A stretch of DNA of 64,000 nucleotides, from contig CAZKOO010000004.1 of the NCBI GenBank assembly GCA_964554435.1, positions 2,116-66,115 of the forward strand, given 5' to 3'. Origin of the DNA: an uncultured Candidatus Peribacteria bacterium (GTDB lineage Bacteria; Patescibacteriota; Gracilibacteria; Peribacterales; Peribacteraceae). The translations under genes and the position numbers were made by a program. Numbering within the stretch: the stretch's first letter is position 1; every line of letters begins with the position of its first letter. Shown here in pieces: positions 18,955-64,000 of the stretch. Below the pieces are notes generated by a model, which did not search any database, was not told the origin of the DNA, and saw only the letters and a program-made list of their open reading frames with translations.

Positions 18955-19015
18955 AGGGTAGGGGGAGTGAATAGAGGATAGGTGTTAGGTGATAGGTGTT
19001 AGGTGATAGGTTATT
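18955..19015. repeat. 7-nt-period word array (GGTGTTA/GGTGATA)
   Basis: AGGGTAGGGGGAGTGAATAGAGGATAGGTGTTAGGTGATAGGTGTTAGGTGATAGGTTATT lies directly upstream of the rpoC ATG. Confidence 0.75.
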
Positions 19016-22207: not shown

Positions 22208-22247
22208 GTATGACCAAGGTGATAGGTTTTAGGTTCTAGGTTTTAGG
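22204..22247. repeat. Word array (GGTGATA/GGTTTTA/GGTTCTA)
   Basis: Includes the TAG stop of the upstream gene. An opposed partner lies at 22401-22432. Confidence 0.7.
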
Positions 22248-33767: not shown

Positions 33768-33873
33768 GTGTTAGGTATTAGGTGTTAGGTATTAGGGGTT
33801 AGGTATTAGGGGTTAGGGGAGAGGGGTTAGGCCTGCCCGCCGAAGTCCGAAGGACGTAGGAGGGGGTGAGGGC
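33768..33873. repeat. Intergenic composite element (heptamer array + GC element)
   Basis: GTGTTAGGTATTAGGTGTTAGGTATTAGGGGTTAGGTATTAGGGGTTAGGGGAGAGGGGTTAGGCCTGCCCGCCGAAG...GGGGGTGAGGGC. Confidence 0.8.
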
Positions 33874-42476: not shown

Positions 42477-42556
42477 TTGATAGTGGGTAGTAAAGAGTGG
42501 GTAGTAAAGAGCGCTGAAAAAGTCTACTAACTACTACCAACTAACTACTACCAACT
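42474..42556. repeat. Opposed word arrays after rny
   Basis: TAGTTGATAGTGGGTAGTAAAGAGTGGGTAGTAAAGAG, then CTACTAACTACTACCAACTAACTACTACCAAC. The first unit is the rny TAG stop. Confidence 0.75.
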
Positions 42557-51065: not shown

Positions 51066-51641
51066 CTACCTCTCTATCTCCTCCTCGACACGAGCGATGG
51101 TTGCGTCTAAGGCGCCATCTTTATTGATAATTTGTACGTCTGTTTGTGGTGCAATGGAAAGCTCATGGCGCATGCTCTCTATACGACGCTTCAGTTCCTC
51201 ATCCGCAATCGGTGCACGCTTTGTAATTTGTCGAATCAATTGCTCTTCATTTTCAGGAAGAATGAAGATTGTTTTCAGTGGATATTGACCTCCTTCTTGA
51301 AACAAGGGATGTTGTTTCATGGACAAAAAGCCCTGTACATCCACTTCGCGAATGACAATTTTCCCCTCTTCAATGGGAGGAATGATTTCAGAAATCAATG
51401 TTCCATAGCGTGCACTGTGATGTACTTGTGCCCATTCTAAAAATCTCCCTTCTTGCAGCCACTGCGTAAACTGTTCATCGGAAATAAAATGATATAAATC
51501 GCTCCCCTCACCTTCTCGCGGTGCACGTGTTGTCGCAGATTTTGGAAAAACATACTGCGGATGAACGCTTCGCAAGTGTCGTAAAATAGCGCTTTTTCCA
51601 ACGCCACTTGGGCCAATGAGAAGAATGAATCGACCGTGCAT
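51066..51641 (-). CDS. gmk: Guanylate kinase
   Basis: 191 aa from MHGRFILLIGPSGVGKS, with ...SATTRAPREGE. Confidence 0.9.
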   Translation of the reverse strand: MHGRFILLIGPSGVGKSAILRHLRSVHPQYVFPKSATTRAPREGEGSDLYHFISDEQFTQWLQEGRFLEWAQVHHSARYGTLISEIIPPIEEGKIVIREVDVQGFLSMKQHPLFQEGGQYPLKTIFILPENEEQLIRQITKRAPIADEELKRRIESMRHELSIAPQTDVQIINKDGALDATIARVEEEIER

Positions 51642-51720
51642 ACTGGCATCATAGCAAAAAATAGAAGGAAGAAAAATGGCTTGCGAAAAATGAAGCACCT
51701 GATCTGACAGATCTTATCGT

Positions 51721-52848
51721 ATGATACGATGTTCCAGAATGATTGTGTTTGACTCTCTGTCGCTTGGCTCTGGATGTATGTTACATTGTTCTGTCAGTGC
51801 TGGGGAGTCTGTCTGTTTCAAGGCGGAAAGCCAAAATATCCCACTGCTCCATCAGCTTTTTTCACTCTCTCTCCCTACACACAGTGGTGCATTTACAATC
51901 GAAGGAATGGATGCTTCTAGTCTGCCTGCACCTCTCGTTCAGCTCTATCGACGCAATACACTTTTCATGCGCCGAGAGAGCAATTCACAGAAGACTGTTG
52001 CGGATTTTCTCTTTAGACTTCTTGCGTTTAGCGGAGCATCTCTCTCTTCTATTTCTCTAAATGTTGATGCAATGTTGCGTCGACTCTCTCTTTTTGAGCA
52101 AAAACATACACCTGTTGCACAACTTCGATCGTACGATCTTTTTCGACTCTATCATGAGCGTATTTCGCTTTCGATGCCAAAAATGATTGTATGCGATGAC
52201 TTTTTGAACGATTGCACAGTACTTGAAAAAAAGGAGGTCTGCTCCATGCTTCAAGCTCTTTCTTCTGCGGGCGTTACAATTGTGCTCTTCCTTCGTCATC
52301 CGGAGCTCTTAGCATTTCCTTGTCGAGTGATTGATACACTGAATGAAAAAGGAATACTTGCAGCACAACAGAAACCCTTTCCATCGCTTTCGCTCGCAGC
52401 ATCTCACACTCCTTCTCGATCTACTCTTCGCATTCAATCGGATGATGCGCCTATAGAGACCACCCTGCAACCATCCCCTTCTCGAGACGAGGAATCAACC
52501 ATCGCCATCAACAATGATCAAGAACAGACTTCTACTTCGTGCATCATTACCTCAGTTGCAGAGGACACACTTGTATCAGTGCGCATTCAAGAAGAAATGA
52601 CGTCACATGTGCGCGCAACATACTCACGAGTACTCAGGAAGAAAATGGAGCAAGAAGTGTCTGTGCGTGTGCAAAAAAACGCGTCAACTCCTACCTCAAA
52701 GCCTTCTCGGCGTTCACGCAAAGAACGATCTTTTGAGCCCGCTCGCTACGTTCCAAAAAATAAGAAACTTGCAACACCAGTACTCAAAAATGATGTGAAT
52801 CGTGAGGCAAAAAGCTTGCCAGTGTTTTCGAGGAAATTTGACAAATAA
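51721..52848 (+). CDS. FtsE-like ABC-ATPase fold with eroded motifs plus basic disordered tail
   Basis: Collinear with ABC ATPases, but Walker A reads KAESQNIP, the signature reads LRSYDLFR, Walker B reads MIVCDDF and the H-loop reads FLRH. The C-terminal ~170 aa are Ser/Arg/Lys-rich. Confidence 0.45.
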   Translation: MIRCSRMIVFDSLSLGSGCMLHCSVSAGESVCFKAESQNIPLLHQLFSLSLPTHSGAFTIEGMDASSLPAPLVQLYRRNTLFMRRESNSQKTVADFLFRLLAFSGASLSSISLNVDAMLRRLSLFEQKHTPVAQLRSYDLFRLYHERISLSMPKMIVCDDFLNDCTVLEKKEVCSMLQALSSAGVTIVLFLRHPELLAFPCRVIDTLNEKGILAAQQKPFPSLSLAASHTPSRSTLRIQSDDAPIETTLQPSPSRDEESTIAINNDQEQTSTSCIITSVAEDTLVSVRIQEEMTSHVRATYSRVLRKKMEQEVSVRVQKNASTPTSKPSRRSRKERSFEPARYVPKNKKLATPVLKNDVNREAKSLPVFSRKFDK

Positions 52849-53662: not shown

Positions 53663-53729
53663 CCTTCATTCATCATCCGCAGGTAGAAACCTGCTCCCTT
53701 TTTATTCTTACCTTCCTTACCTACATTAC
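53663..53729. repeat. ~70-bp module containing a REP hairpin
   Basis: CCTTCATTCATCATCCGCAGGTAGAAACCTGCTCCCTTTTTATTCTTACCTTCCTTACCTACATTAC is similar to 63293-63369. Confidence 0.7.
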
Positions 53730-53743
53730 TTCCCTTACCTTCC

Positions 53744-54790
53744 TCACTTGCACCACTTCAGCTCACCCTTCATCTCTACTTTCTTTGAACCTCCATCGAC
53801 AATGACTCCAATTTCTGTACATGGCACACCGTGGCCTTCGATGTGTGCAATGATCTCTTCTTTGTGTTGTGGATCGATGGCAATCGTGAGGCCGGCACCA
53901 AGGTTAAATGTTTGGATCATATCTGCATCATCATTCTTCGACCACTCTTTGATGACGCTAAAAATTGTAGGAATCTTGAGGCGAGATGCATCAATTTCAG
54001 CATTCATGGTACTAGGCAAAATGCGATCTAAATTTCCAGGGATTCCTCCGCCAGTAATGTGTGCCATGCCATGCAGTGCAGGATGTGTGAAGAGATCTTT
54101 CATTGTGTGATAGTAACAGCGATGTGGCGTGAGAATGGCATCGATGAACGTTCCATCATCTACTTTCACGTCTGCAATTTCAGGATATTCTTTGAGGAGC
54201 GCGCGAATGAGCGTGTAGCCATTGGTGTGAAGTCCGCTACTTTCAAGCGCAAGGACAATGTCTCCTGCCTGAATCTTGGACCCATCTACAATCTGATCTT
54301 TCTCAGCAACGCCGATGCAACTTGCGCCCAGAACGTACGTCCCTGCTTCGAGTACTGCTGGCTGTTCCGATGTTTCGCCTCCAGTGAGAACTGCACCTTG
54401 CGCCTTGCAGGCAGAAGCAAGATCGCGCACCAAACTTTTCACAACGTCTTGTTCCAATTTTCCGCACACAATAAGATCTTGAACAAATTTTGGATGCGCA
54501 CCCATCACCATGACATCATTCACCAAGTGATGAATGAGATCGTCGCAAATACCTTTTGTTTTCTTGTACTTAAATGCAAGAATTTGCTTGCTTCCTGGCT
54601 CTTCCATCTTACACACAAGCACGGGGTGCTTGAATTCTGGAAAACTTCCATCGCAGAGCGATGCAAACGCACCAATGCTGTTGAGTACGAGAGGATTATC
54701 AGTCTCTAAACTTTCTGCCATTTGCTCTTTTGTGCGGTCTGCGTTTGCAATATCTACCCCCGCAGAACTGTAGGAAATTTTCTGTGTCAT
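53744..54790 (-). CDS. purM: Phosphoribosylformylglycinamidine cyclo-ligase (AIR synthetase)
   Basis: 348 aa with YSSAGVDI, GAFASL and GLHTNGYTL motifs. Confidence 0.92.
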   Translation of the reverse strand: MTQKISYSSAGVDIANADRTKEQMAESLETDNPLVLNSIGAFASLCDGSFPEFKHPVLVCKMEEPGSKQILAFKYKKTKGICDDLIHHLVNDVMVMGAHPKFVQDLIVCGKLEQDVVKSLVRDLASACKAQGAVLTGGETSEQPAVLEAGTYVLGASCIGVAEKDQIVDGSKIQAGDIVLALESSGLHTNGYTLIRALLKEYPEIADVKVDDGTFIDAILTPHRCYYHTMKDLFTHPALHGMAHITGGGIPGNLDRILPSTMNAEIDASRLKIPTIFSVIKEWSKNDDADMIQTFNLGAGLTIAIDPQHKEEIIAHIEGHGVPCTEIGVIVDGGSKKVEMKGELKWCK

Positions 54791-59850: not shown

Positions 59851-60072
59851 ATGCCAGTTAAGAAAACTGCAAAAAAGGCGGCTCCAAAGGCTGCTAAGAA
59901 GGTAGCTACAACAAAGAAAGCAGCTCCAAAGGCTGCAAAGAAAGTAGCTACAACAAAGAAAGCAGCTCCAAAGGCTGCAAAGAAAGTAGCGGCAAAGAAG
60001 CCAGCTGCGAAAAAAGTAGTAGCAAAGGCAAAGAAGCCAGCTGCTAAGAAAGTCGTAGCAAAGAAAAAATAG
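59851..60072 (+). CDS. Histone H1-like Lys/Ala-rich DNA-binding protein
   Basis: 73 aa with a 42-bp tandem unit encoding AAPKAAKKVATTKK (about 3 copies). Confidence 0.6.
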   Translation: MPVKKTAKKAAPKAAKKVATTKKAAPKAAKKVATTKKAAPKAAKKVAAKKPAAKKVVAKAKKPAAKKVVAKKK

Positions 60073-61750: not shown

Positions 61751-62614
61751 ATGTCAGAAGTAGATCTTTACTATGATGCACTGGGCACGACATTTGATGT
61801 GCATCTTTTTTCAGATCATGAGCAGGATGCCGTTGATCAATCTATTCGAGACTATTTGATTCTCTTTGAAAACAACTACTCACGCTTTCGCAATGATTCA
61901 CTACTTTCCTCTTTTGCGCATCAAGTAGGCATCATCGAGGTACCTGAAGAATGTGTGTCGATGATCCAATTTTTTGAAACGATAGAATCTCTGACAGATG
62001 GCATCTTTACACCCTGCATTGGCAGAGCATTGCATGACATTGGGTACGATCGAGACTATTCTTTTGTCGAAAAAAAAGAGAAGATGATCATCCCTCGACT
62101 CTCTGATGTTGTGCGGATGATTGACGAACAGCACATCGAACTACTGCAACCATTCCTCTTTGACTTTGGAGGCATTGCAAAAGGATGGTGCATCGATTCT
62201 ATTGCAACAATTCTTGAGCGCTTTCATCACAGTTCTTTTTTGATCAATGGAAGTGGAGATGTGCTCTATCGCGGAGAAAAAACTCTCCGATGTGGGCTCG
62301 AAGACCCTCACGATGCATTGAAAGCAATTGGCATCTTTCCTCTTACTCACGGCTCTCTCTGCGGATCATCTGGGAGTAGGAGAACGTGGGAAAACCATCA
62401 TCATATTGTGAATCCACGTACGCATGAGTCGCCAACAAACATTCTTGCAACGTGGGTGTGGAGCGAGCGAGCTCTCATTGCCGACACACTGGCAACATGT
62501 CTTTTCCTTGTGGAGCCAGATCTTCTCAGTGAGCATTTTTCTTTCGAATATTGCATTCTTCGAGAAGATTTCTCTGTGTCTTGTTCTCCGCATTTTTCTG
62601 CGGAATGGTTGTAA
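61751..62614 (+). CDS. apbE: FAD:protein FMN transferase (ApbE family)
   Basis: 287 aa with the FDFGGIAKGWCID motif. Confidence 0.8.
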   Translation: MSEVDLYYDALGTTFDVHLFSDHEQDAVDQSIRDYLILFENNYSRFRNDSLLSSFAHQVGIIEVPEECVSMIQFFETIESLTDGIFTPCIGRALHDIGYDRDYSFVEKKEKMIIPRLSDVVRMIDEQHIELLQPFLFDFGGIAKGWCIDSIATILERFHHSSFLINGSGDVLYRGEKTLRCGLEDPHDALKAIGIFPLTHGSLCGSSGSRRTWENHHHIVNPRTHESPTNILATWVWSERALIADTLATCLFLVEPDLLSEHFSFEYCILREDFSVSCSPHFSAEWL

Positions 62615-62639: not shown

Positions 62640-62668
62640 TTGCAAAAAAAGAGAGAAAAGACTATACT
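62640..62668 (+). promoter_or_regulatory. Sigma70-like promoter TTGCAA-17-TATACT
   Basis: Lies 26 nt after the apbE stop. No credible ORF follows. Confidence 0.5.
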
Positions 62669-62674
62669 GGTAAG

Positions 62675-63173
62675 ATTTGTTCCTTCACAACAATCTCTTC
62701 CTACTCTCCTGTTACGCTTGATGAGGTGTGCGCAGGGAGAAGGATGGAATCCTCACAAATACACATACACATTTGTCACGCTACTCTCTCTCGGGGGAAA
62801 GGTGGGTAGCATGATTCCATCTTCCTCCCTGCTTCTAGCCTCTGTACGGAAACGATGAGTCAATGCACTCACGCACGTACTCGACTTCAAGCTCCCAACC
62901 ACTCGTGTTGGGATGACAAACACACATAAACGGCACACTACTAGCCGATAGTAGTCGCGACTTTCAGCGCATGAAAGACTACACAAATACACATATCGAC
63001 GGCGCGGTACCGTCATTAAAAAAATCGCAGGACGGTGTAGGGAGATACTCATCACTGCTTTGTCGACAGAGGTGAGGCATCGCTCAATTCACCTCAAACG
63101 AATTGAGTTTTAAACCGGGCATTCGGTCTTGGTATTTTCTTTCGAGAGTATCAGCACCGGATGCCCGTTTTTT
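62675..63173 (+). ncRNA. Candidate structured noncoding RNA (unclassified)
   Basis: Contains a 20-bp long-range stem (62732-62751 with 62813-62832) and at least 8 further hairpins. It ends in a 12-bp stem plus T6. No plausible ORF. No tmRNA, RNase P, SRP, 5S or tRNA motifs were seen. Confidence 0.3.
63116..63173 (+). terminator. Rho-independent terminator (long hairpin + T6)
   Basis: CGGGCATTCGGT (63116-63127) pairs with ACCGGATGCCCG (63156-63167), giving 12 bp including one G-U, followed by TTTTTT. Confidence 0.65.
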
Positions 63174-63277
63174 GGTAGGTAAAGTAGGTATGGAAGGTAG
63201 AGTAGGTATTGTAAGTATGGAAGGCGACAAAAGAATTTTTTCCTTACATCCCTTACCTGCCTGACCTACCTTACCTT
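63174..63277. repeat. Opposed word arrays (GGTAGG/GGTAAG dialect)
   Basis: GGTAGGTAAAGTAGGTATGGAAGGTAGAGTAGGTATTGTAAGTATGGAAGG ... TCCTTACATCCCTTACCTGCCTGACCTACCTTACC. Confidence 0.7.
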
Positions 63278-63292
63278 CTTTTGCATCTTCAT

Positions 63293-63369
63293 CCTTCATT
63301 CATCATCCGCAGGTCATCTGACCTGCTCTGTTTTATTCTTACCTCCCTTACCCACCTTACATACATTAC
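63293..63369. repeat. Second copy of the ~70-bp REP-containing module
   Basis: CCTTCATTCATCATCCGCAGGTCATCTGACCTGCTCTGTTTTATTCTTACCTCCCTTACCCACCTTACATACATTAC. Confidence 0.7.
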
Positions 63370-63470
63370 CGTCGTCTGTTTCTTCTTATTCCCCTGACTC
63401 TTCTGCTTCCTTATTTCCAACTGTCTCGGCATAGCTCTTTGAGAGCGACGACGGATTGATTTCATTAAAT

Positions 63471-64000
63471 TCATCCCTCTGTCTCTCCTGTATCTGTTAC
63501 TGCTACATCCCCTGCTTGCCCTGTCTGTCTGTTTGCATTGGAGTCCCCGACAATGGACGATTCTTCATTTCGTAAAAAGAGAGGAATAAACTCTTCCCAT
63601 GGAATACTGATTCTCTTTTTTTCCTGATCACGCAATACCACTGCATCCATTCTTACTACATCAATAGCATAATTGACTCCTCTGTATGACAATTGATGAG
63701 AGCGCATCATCCAACGATGTACTCTTTCTCGCTCTTTATCTGTAAGAGTAAGAAACGCCTGAGCATGCGCTAAATAGCTTGGTATCGGTTTGCCTTCTTT
63801 CATATGAGAGTTTTCAGGATGATATTCTAGTGTGCCCTCACTGAGTCGCATACCTGAAACTCTCTCTTTTAAACCATGATATCCTTTTGCTAACTTCTCT
63901 ATTCCACCTTCTTCTTTTATAGCATACATCTGCAGTATTTCCTTTCTTACTGCACGCATTGTAGGGCGATTATTTGGATTGTATGATAGCATTTTTGCAA
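63471..64000 (-). CDS. Partial CDS (5' end outside window), possibly the C-terminal region of a Ser/Thr protein kinase
   Basis: The frame is open to the window edge. LSYNPNNRPTMRAVRKEIL resembles kinase subdomain XI. The remaining ~160 aa are unassigned. Confidence 0.35.
   Translation of the reverse strand, partial: AKMLSYNPNNRPTMRAVRKEILQMYAIKEEGGIEKLAKGYHGLKERVSGMRLSEGTLEYHPENSHMKEGKPIPSYLAHAQAFLTLTDKERERVHRWMMRSHQLSYRGVNYAIDVVRMDAVVLRDQEKKRISIPWEEFIPLFLRNEESSIVGDSNANRQTGQAGDVAVTDTGETEG

Follow-up and report, generated by a model that had tools for sequence, protein, structure and literature searches.

A candidate new family of structured RNA with adenine-periodic linkers in Peregrinibacteria

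We analysed a 64,000-nt stretch of a contig from an uncultured Candidatus Peribacteria bacterium, hereafter the window (W denotes its sequence), in which a predicted non-coding RNA of about 500 nt occupies positions 62672-63173 of the + strand, between apbE and a convergent kinase gene. An initial annotation, made from the letters alone, had proposed at this place a discrete, structured and possibly novel non-coding RNA, and the proposal is supported by the fold z-score, by homologues, by covariation and by synteny. We are highly confident that the element is a real gene for a structured RNA and that its family is new. By a new RNA class we mean a family without a detectable relative, which is not necessarily a new principle. 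Contigs of this analysis carry the labels L001-L045, and two of its proteins are referred to as P0002 and P0063.

Homologues and transcription unit

The 13-mer ACAAAYACACATA occurs three times in the window (0.21 expected), each time on the + strand and inside the RNA, with the copies 161 and 67 nt apart in different structural contexts. A scan of GTDB species genomes for two copies spaced 40-70 nt returned one true match, on contig L021 from a metagenome-assembled genome of an uncultured Candidatus Peribacteria, beside 13 loci that were CA-microsatellite artefacts. The L021 homologue is a + strand stretch of about 480 nt, flanked by gmk and a DUF389 gene, both on the - strand, and folds with a z-score of -9.7. 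It shares with the window, in collinear order, the -10 box, the 5' motif, GCAGGGAGAA ... UUCCUCCCUGCUU, the 13-mer pair, GUAGGGAG and the terminator. As in the window, its two 13-mer copies flank two hairpins.

The L021 gmk served as a handle to the contigs of eight more gmk proteins (65-81% identity), and eight further distinct homologues were found upstream of gmk in Peribacteraceae contigs. The RNA is present at 9/9 Peribacteraceae gmk loci with usable upstream sequence and, in every locus with upstream sequence, lies on the strand opposite gmk, whatever the other neighbour. One contig (L025, protein P0063) reaches just 62 nt beyond gmk on the upstream side, where only the promoter and the first part of the 5' motif are left. 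Including the window, the family comprises 10 distinct sequences of 320-502 nt with a GC content of 0.43-0.63, the nine others being those of L021, L026, L029, L032, L034, L035, L039, L042 and L045. All ten fold better than mononucleotide shuffles, with z-scores from -3.3 to -12.2.

An nhmmer profile built from the nine others, without the window, recovered only this locus in the 64 kb, through collinear matches at 62673-62742 (E 5e-3) and 62823-63172 (E 5e-4). The family blocks are, in order, GAUUYGNUCNUU, arm b (GCAGGGAG..), arm c (..CUCCCUGC), linker L1, CCGAUA, linker L2, the f block xAGGGAG and the terminator; the window copy contains all of them with the order kept, and no further copy of the RNA occurs elsewhere in the window. 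The identical locus is present in three other public contigs. A metagenome scan with TCCTCCCTGC-N{66,96}-ACAAAYACACATA gave just three low-complexity, eukaryote-like matches; among three scans of viral contigs, two were empty and one, a loose search, gave 120 chance matches, none of which fits the family profile at E<=1. The window RNA and its homologues form a family found in Peregrinibacteria, namely in Peribacteraceae and this relative.

The RNA is preceded by a sigma-70-type promoter on the + strand (62640-62668), whose -35 box TTGCAA (62640-62645) and -10 box TATACT (62663-62668) are separated by a 17-nt spacer. The promoter, which had been recognised in the initial annotation, begins 25 nt past the apbE stop, and transcription is predicted to start at about 62672-62675. 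Taken alone, this match is at chance level, with 3 found and 4.1 expected in 2.5 kb. The homologues carry a -35 box (TTGCAN/TTCCAN), 17 nt and TAnnAT, or a TGn-extended -10 box, placed 5-6 nt upstream of the 5' motif. At the other end lies the intrinsic terminator that had likewise been annotated (63116-63173, + strand), a two-part hairpin of 12 + 11 bp at 63116-63167, which is inverted repeat I1 of the window, followed by T6 at 63168-63173. A G+C-rich hairpin with a U run terminates 10/10 family members. The unit is richer in GC than the intergenic norm, as had been noted, although the difference is modest (0.48-0.51 in the RNA unit, 0.375-0.45 in the flanks).

In the window, the RNA lies in a gap of 857 nt, read directly from the sequence, between apbE (stop at 62614, + strand) and a gene for a 761-aa cyclic nucleoside monophosphate-binding Ser/Thr kinase (end at 63471, - strand, convergent), which is whole in contig L001. 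Elsewhere its neighbours are gmk together with DUF389, peptidase S51, asparaginase or tRNA genes. The nearest relative of the window ApbE, P0002 on contig L004 (69% identity), keeps the operon msrA-flavodoxin-DUF2231-apbE, and the 300 nt after its apbE are unrelated DNA with no homologue of the RNA at that position; nor is there one after apbE in a more distant relative (L005-7). The window gmk (51066-51698, - strand) is about 60% identical to the Peribacteraceae gmk of RNA-carrying loci. The next gene (51721-52848, + strand) lies only 22 nt upstream of it, leaving no room for the RNA, which sits 11 kb from gmk, after apbE. Since the RNA is found upstream of gmk in nine Peribacteraceae loci and 11 kb away in the window, its gene has been relocated within the same chromosomal neighbourhood.

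The check proposed in the initial annotation, whether homologous regions always follow apbE, gave a clear answer: the RNA moves independently. The varied neighbours and the absence of a copy after apbE in the closest relative argue for an independent gene rather than a 3' untranslated region (3'UTR) or cis-element of apbE. On this comparison of loci, the RNA is predicted to be an independent transcription unit with promoter and terminator conserved in place.

Two kinds of element accompany the locus. Pairs of tRNA genes lie 0.1-2 kb from the RNA in five Peribacteraceae contigs (L032:1205-1458, L035:362-634, L039:2660-2918, L045:4100-4332 and L026:1008-1177). In the window, G/T/A-rich tandem repeats of the 'GTAGGTA / GGTAG' type, with a period of 7, 9 or 14 nt, stand at gene boundaries (63174-63280, 63331-63385, 18977-19011, 22223-22247, 33770-33831, 42482-42556 and 53707-53759), often followed by their complement (CCTTACC...) so as to form long imperfect hairpins. 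The pattern GTAGGTANNGWAGGTA has 11 matches (0.19 expected). One pair of these repeats starts right past the RNA terminator, and the order terminator-then-repeats also occurs at L004:885-1040. Being absent from the homologues, the repeats do not belong to the RNA; they could be elements of the repetitive extragenic palindromic (REP) type, bidirectional terminators or a protein-binding array.

Fold, covariation and single-stranded linkers

The segment 62675-63175 folds at -180 kcal/mol, compared with -130.8 +/- 6.5 kcal/mol for dinucleotide shuffles, and the z-score of the unit is -7.5 on the + strand and -4.6 on the - strand. The elements listed in the initial annotation were all recovered in place or within a few bases, and the covariation that it had suggested looking for among homologues was found, in the form of strong compensatory changes in base pairs. 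The transcript opens with a 5'-terminal motif (62674-62685, + strand), GAUUUGUUCCUU in the window and GAUUYGNUCNUU in the family consensus; in the 10-sequence alignment its invariant columns are G3, T5, T6, G8, T10, C11, T13 and T14.

The most prominent helix is the long rod P2 on the + strand, formed by a 5' arm (block b, GCAGGGAGAAGGAUGGAAUC, 62732-62751) and a 3' arm (block c, GAUUCCAUCUUCCUCCCUGC, 62813-62832). This long-range stem, already noticed initially, corresponds to inverted repeat I3, spans 20 nt and is 90% complementary; the fold contains the two hairpins said to be enclosed by it and places an apical hairpin at 62780-62810 (+ strand). For the covariation analysis, the outer 20 nt of each arm from the 10 sequences were joined and aligned without gaps. 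Over 19 pairs, 94% of cells are paired, and both sides have changed at 11/19 pairs (21 cells). None of 500 shuffles reaches the observed values, and sliding the partner by 1-3 columns lowers the paired fraction to 46-62%. The window arms GGAUGGAAUC/GAUUCCAUC differ widely from AUGAGAAGUG/CACUUCUCGU, yet still pair 19/19 in the same register. The rod is interrupted by a conserved 1x1 A-C mismatch. It also contains 12 G-U cells, which would be A-C mismatches on the other strand, supporting the + strand as the transcribed one.

RNAalifold, applied to an unfitted MAFFT alignment of seven Peribacteraceae sequences, caps the P2 domain with a four-way junction of helices P2a, P2b and P2c. Rod and junction together comprise 55 pairs, with 90% of cells paired and both sides changed at 26/55; here too 0/500 shuffles reach the observed values, and sliding leaves 39-49% paired. 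Most members have this cap. The apex is a simpler three-way arrangement in the window, where it carries a third CA tract, and a single hairpin in L045. Within P2a, an internal loop is kept in L021, L026, L029 and L034, in which CCGUAC-AA-GCAUGG stands opposite CCAUGU-AG-GUACGG around a 2x2 A/G-rich core (for example L021:6553-6566/6625-6638). The window copy is without this loop, which is likely a protein- or tertiary-contact motif.

The 3' domain is an array of hairpins. In the window, the fold contains hairpins at 62844-62880 and 62893-62913, two inter-linker hairpins at 62937-62955 and 62961-62977 (feature 62937-62977, with the conserved CCGAUA at 62945-62950 from the alignment), hairpin Hf at 62998-63014 (fold and covariation), a hairpin at 63048-63076 with loop UUUGUCGA (nUGGUCn in the homologues) and an extra hairpin at 63083-63107 that is variable and missing from several homologues; all are on the + strand. 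The first five of these stems and the alternative stems within 63069-63107 had been drawn in the initial annotation and are in, or compatible with, the minimum-free-energy fold. Across the family, the hairpins occupy the same positions between conserved flanks and have different stem sequences in each member, with pairs changed on both sides at 6/6 in Hf, 5/5 in H2, 5/5 in PK3 and 4/4 in L1L2b. Several helix tests used hand-extracted arms. In the 3' domain the arms came from the individual fold of each sequence, which makes the percentage paired high by construction; what is informative is that the hairpins are homologous in position although their sequences have turned over. RNAalifold also recovered Hf and L1L2b on an unfitted alignment. 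With MAFFT and RNAalifold on the 3' domain, all 10 sequences together were misaligned, and a 6-sequence subset gave no more than two hairpins, along with a doubtful long-range helix of 5 bp that involves the f block.

Two further sets of pairings involve the f block (63037-63044, GUAGGGAG, xAGGGAG). Together with a CU-rich 5' segment it forms the closing helix P1 of the minimum-free-energy fold, in which the 5' strand CUUCCUACUCUCCUGU (62697-62712, + strand) pairs with 63027-63044, within the 3' strand at 63027-63045 (+ strand); in the window RNAduplex gives -22.5 kcal/mol (z -2.3). We rejected P1 as a universal closing helix, as it is absent in L021, L026, L029, L034 and L035. The f block also nearly repeats the 8 nt that open rod arm b (62732-62739, GCAGGGAG) and can pair with arm c (62825-62832, CUCCCUGC) in 98% of cells over the 10 sequences, with changes that track c: L034 has A in both b and f opposite the U of c, and in L026 and L039 f begins with A opposite the terminal U of c. 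At the level of sequence, this suggests a competing helix that would act as a switch, an intermolecular helix or an old internal duplication. We rejected a helix between the 5' motif and the f block (76% of cells, broken in L026 and L029), and likewise one between the 5' motif and the CA linkers or the Hf loop, which by eye is inconsistent across members.

A loop-loop contact is a further candidate. The hairpin loop that follows block c (consensus GACCA) has its complement in the one that follows the f block (UGGUC); in the window, UCGAC at 62881-62885 (+ strand) is the candidate partner, by complementarity, of the GUCGA loop at 63062-63066, and the loop GUCGAC is palindromic. Over 7 positions, 81% of cells pair. 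One flanking pair occurs as U-A, C-G and A-U, and in L045 a C-G pair is replaced by U-A. Both loop hairpins are missing from L039, the minimal member. The partner was picked by complementarity in some members, including the window, and the contact, statistically weak, is suggestive only.

The RNA has two conserved CA-rich, single-stranded linkers, L1 (62915-62931, + strand), an (A-N)8 tract of sequence GACAAACACACAUAAAC, and L2 (62982-62997, + strand), an (A-N)7 tract of sequence CACAAAUACACAUAUC. Unpaired L1 and L2 flank the two-hairpin module in every member, and the window has a third tract, an (A-N)9 copy at the apex of P2 (62755-62771, + strand; copy 1). The linkers share a register, not a sequence: A stands at every second base in 20/20. 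The run length n is 5-11, with a median of 7-8, compared with a mean of 3-5 in composition-matched shuffles. The N positions are C in 55%, A in 28%, U in 16% and G in 1.5%, and the near absence of G and scarcity of U would keep the tracts unpaired. A search of the window for targets complementary to the CA motif found none. The distal face of Gram-positive Hfq reads (A-N)n or (R-L)n strands through six sites, so that a hexamer covers 12 nt; high-affinity binding is predicted for (AC)n, (AA)n and (AU)n (PMC3505971). The register of the linkers matches this R-L motif and not the AAnAAnAA of CrcZ.

Known RNA classes, possible function and rival explanations

To place the RNA among known classes, we compared it with Rfam 15 (4227 covariance models). 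As the initial annotation had anticipated in finding no known-RNA signature, there was no match at gathering score in the whole 64-kb window, and the nine homologous loci gave only tRNAs outside the RNA. At E<=10, the window, L021 and L045 gave only microRNA, terminator or hairpin noise, with scores far short of the threshold. ARAGORN found no tRNA or transfer-messenger RNA (tmRNA) in the 64-kb window and nothing in the 10 family members.

Individual classes were rejected on their own features. For tmRNA, there is no T-arm or acceptor stem, and the 3' end is an intrinsic terminator hairpin with a U run. For RNase P RNA, three members gave no model match at E<=10, and the P4-type GGAAAGUC / ACAGAA motifs are not conserved, the string GGAAAGG being present only in the window copy and not kept in the family. 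6S RNA is a rod of about 180 nt with a large central bubble, and signal recognition particle (SRP) RNA has a domain IV motif and a GNRA loop; neither model matched, and P2, interrupted only by a 1x1 A-C mismatch, lacks a central bubble. A retron msr-msd, a defence-associated reverse transcriptase (DRT) non-coding RNA or a HEARO-omega RNA was dismissed because no reverse transcriptase, IscB or TnpB gene is adjacent. A type III toxin-antitoxin RNA was dismissed because the 13-mers are not tandem (161 and 67 nt apart) and the next gene is convergent. CsrA-type GGA motifs were dropped, there being one AAGGAU per RNA in a subset of members only. For an Hfq sponge of the CrcZ type the picture is mixed: the covariance model of CrcZ gave no match, and all members carry two or three single-stranded (A-N)5-11 tracts. 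In the literature searched, we found no non-coding RNA described in Peregrinibacteria or the candidate phyla radiation (CPR), nor any description of this family.

None of the open reading frames (ORFs) over the RNA (144, 100, 71 and 53 aa) matches Pfam, nor is any frame conserved: translated similarity among homologues consists of short pieces in all six frames, and stop-free stretches vary in frame and strand between members. The initial judgement that the ORFs here are implausible, the longest having 144 and 100 aa, is borne out, and the translated search gave no sign of a gene remnant. A HMMER search of 1.84 billion proteins with the 100-aa ORF gave two matches, to giant proteins of 5253 and 1519 aa; the 5253-aa match had no aligned stretch reported, and there was no family of comparable size. 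Public gene calls nevertheless put ORFs of up to 203 aa over the RNA or the terminator/repeat region, at L026:2565-2810 (- strand, 81 aa), L032:1417-2028 (+ strand, 203 aa) and L001:6307-6522 (- strand, 71 aa; window 63084-63299). None of these three called ORFs has a Pfam match, and they are almost certainly spurious database proteins. Elsewhere in the window, a 73-aa Lys/Ala-rich ORF (KKAAPKAAKKVATTKKAAPKAAKK..., 59851-60072, + strand) is built on 42-nt tandem repeats (2.9 copies, 93% matches); it has no Pfam match and looks like a histone-H1-like or Hc1-like DNA-binding protein.

Our preferred reading is that of a stand-alone, trans-acting structured non-coding RNA that works as a scaffold with docking sites, a statement which, taken whole, we consider evenly balanced between right and wrong. 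In this mechanism, the fold would be compacted by the loop-loop contact of GACCA with UGGUC, the most certain of the steps. The rod, the junction and the hairpin array would then make up a rigid scaffold displaying two or three (A-N)n single strands, on which an adenine-reading RNA-binding protein, for example an Hfq/Sm-like ring, might dock. This docking, argued by analogy, is the least certain step, and we regard it as possible but doubtful. The RNA would serve as the core of a ribonucleoprotein (RNP) or would titrate the protein as a decoy, as CrcZ does with Hfq and CsrB with CsrA.

Several observations weigh against this reading. Both the 5' and the 3' ends of the transcript are predictions. 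P1 reaches significance in 3/10 members (W, L039 and L045), with L032 and L042 marginal. The loop-loop contact is not statistically decisive, since 35/500 shuffles reach the observed double changes. The ten family sequences are few and phylogenetically related, so that the shuffle statistics overstate independence. With two or three tracts per RNA, the number of putative docking sites is far below that of CsrB and below the six of CrcZ, and RNA-RNA contacts, tertiary or quaternary, could make use of an A in every second position just as well. As for the partner, tblastn with three Hfq proteins found no Hfq in the 285 kb examined, a sample too small to inform, and no Sm-like gene or other candidate partner was seen in the same 285 kb, which is again too little to inform. 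We found no literature on Hfq in Peregrinibacteria.

The main rival holds that the function resides in RNA alone, the molecule being a self-folding or self-assembling ornate RNA or a ribozyme whose tracts, complementary loops and duplicated GGGAG blocks make RNA-RNA contacts, within one molecule or between molecules. The size, the multi-domain build, the four-way junction and the conserved internal loops would fit such a molecule, as would the complementary conserved loops, both missing together in L039, and the palindromic loop of the window. The f block pairs with arm c as well as arm b does, as an intermolecular or switching helix would. There is precedent in the homo-oligomers of OLE, ROOL and GOLLD, where contacts that covariation had first suggested to be tertiary proved to bridge separate molecules, kissing loops and A-A pairs among them (PMC12286853). 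For the present family, multimers and catalysis are hypothetical, and the covariation between the loops is weak. A strict every-second-A register with almost no G is, moreover, typical of a strand read by protein and less so of RNA tertiary motifs. We judge this rival rather improbable. A bolder proposal, which we consider unlikely, is that the RNA is a machine of essential type shared across the Peregrinibacteria lineage, in a biochemical role not seen before in bacteria. It might be a self-assembling particle or ribozyme, with the duplicated GGGAG blocks and the loops as intermolecular bridges, or a hub of CPR-specific post-transcriptional control acting through (A-N)n recognition.

The remaining explanations fare worse. 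That the RNA is a divergent RNase P, tmRNA, 6S or SRP RNA missed by Rfam and ARAGORN would accord with its presence at all nine usable gmk loci and with a strong promoter and terminator, as expected for an essential RNA, and CPR bacteria do have unusual RNAs. This is nonetheless very improbable, given the lack of any model for the four at E<=10 in three members or at gathering score in the nine loci, the empty ARAGORN result, a terminator end without T-arm or acceptor stem, the absence of P4-type motifs, and a size of 320-500 nt and an architecture that fit none of them. Still less credit is due to the idea of a cis-acting part of the apbE transcript, be it a structured 3'UTR, a small RNA derived from it, a stabiliser or a terminator region. 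The RNA does start 25 nt after apbE on the same strand, and only a weak A/U-rich hairpin without a U run (inverted repeat I5) lies between them, so that read-through from apbE is possible; in nine other genomes, however, the RNA is unlinked to apbE and divergent from gmk, the closest apbE relative has the same operon with no trace of it, and its own promoter is conserved in place. Synteny largely refutes this explanation. Least credible of all is a non-functional region that happens to fold, such as a decayed protein gene, a mobile-element remnant or a repeat/REP-like region. The public ORF calls over the RNA or its homologues (81 aa in L026, 203 aa in L032) and the repeats in the flank at 63174-63385 might be cited for it, but the six-frame similarity is scattered, with no conserved frame, no Pfam match and two giant-protein matches only, and each locus has a single copy, the window none besides this one. 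The compensatory changes and the conserved unpaired motifs indicate selection on RNA structure, and covariation has already refuted this possibility.

Comparison with known RNAs

In its possible principle of action, the new RNA, read as a scaffold with docking sites, is closest to the protein-sponge RNAs. CrcZ/CrcY and CsrB/RsmZ likewise stand alone, measure about 0.1-0.4 kb and have a promoter and terminator of their own; short repeated single-stranded motifs between or on their hairpins bind a global RNA-binding protein. The motifs of CrcZ are A-rich and read by the distal face of Hfq; the (A-N)n register here is that of the Gram-positive type of Hfq (PMC3505971). In contrast to CrcZ and CsrB, the new RNA has no match by sequence or covariance model, only 2-3 tracts and no control element of the sigma-54/CbrB type, and it is more elaborate, with its 20-bp rod, four-way junction and candidate loop-loop contact.

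In appearance, it recalls the large ornate RNAs OLE, ROOL, GOLLD, raiA and HEARO, which share with it a length of 0.3-0.6 kb, a multi-domain covarying fold, conserved unpaired nucleotides, loop-loop complementarity and restriction to particular lineages. It differs from them in matching no Rfam model and in its hosts, which are CPR/Peregrinibacteria; neither oapA-C, as for OLE, nor IscB genes, as for HEARO, lie near it. We know of no periodic (A-N)n linkers in any of these five classes. Like RNase P, tmRNA, 6S and SRP RNA, it is encoded once, has a strong promoter and terminator, occurs in each of the related genomes examined and contains long-range helices and possibly pseudoknots, whereas their defining motifs and models are not found in it. 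By principle, then, the RNA may resemble the protein-sponge RNAs and by appearance the large ornate RNAs, while being a member of neither group.

To our knowledge, and in the literature searched, no lineage-specific structured RNA has been characterised in the CPR. The tiny genomes of these bacteria make 0.3-0.5 kb of conserved non-coding DNA costly, and the RNA is therefore probably important to its hosts. Its testable anatomy and a natural series of members from 320 nt to 500 nt mean that structural and biochemical work can start at once. Large bacterial RNAs with a complex fold are rare, and those with a known function are ribozymes, RNP cores or global regulators. The functions of OLE, ROOL, GOLLD and raiA are a long-standing puzzle, and a new class from the candidate phyla radiation now joins them.

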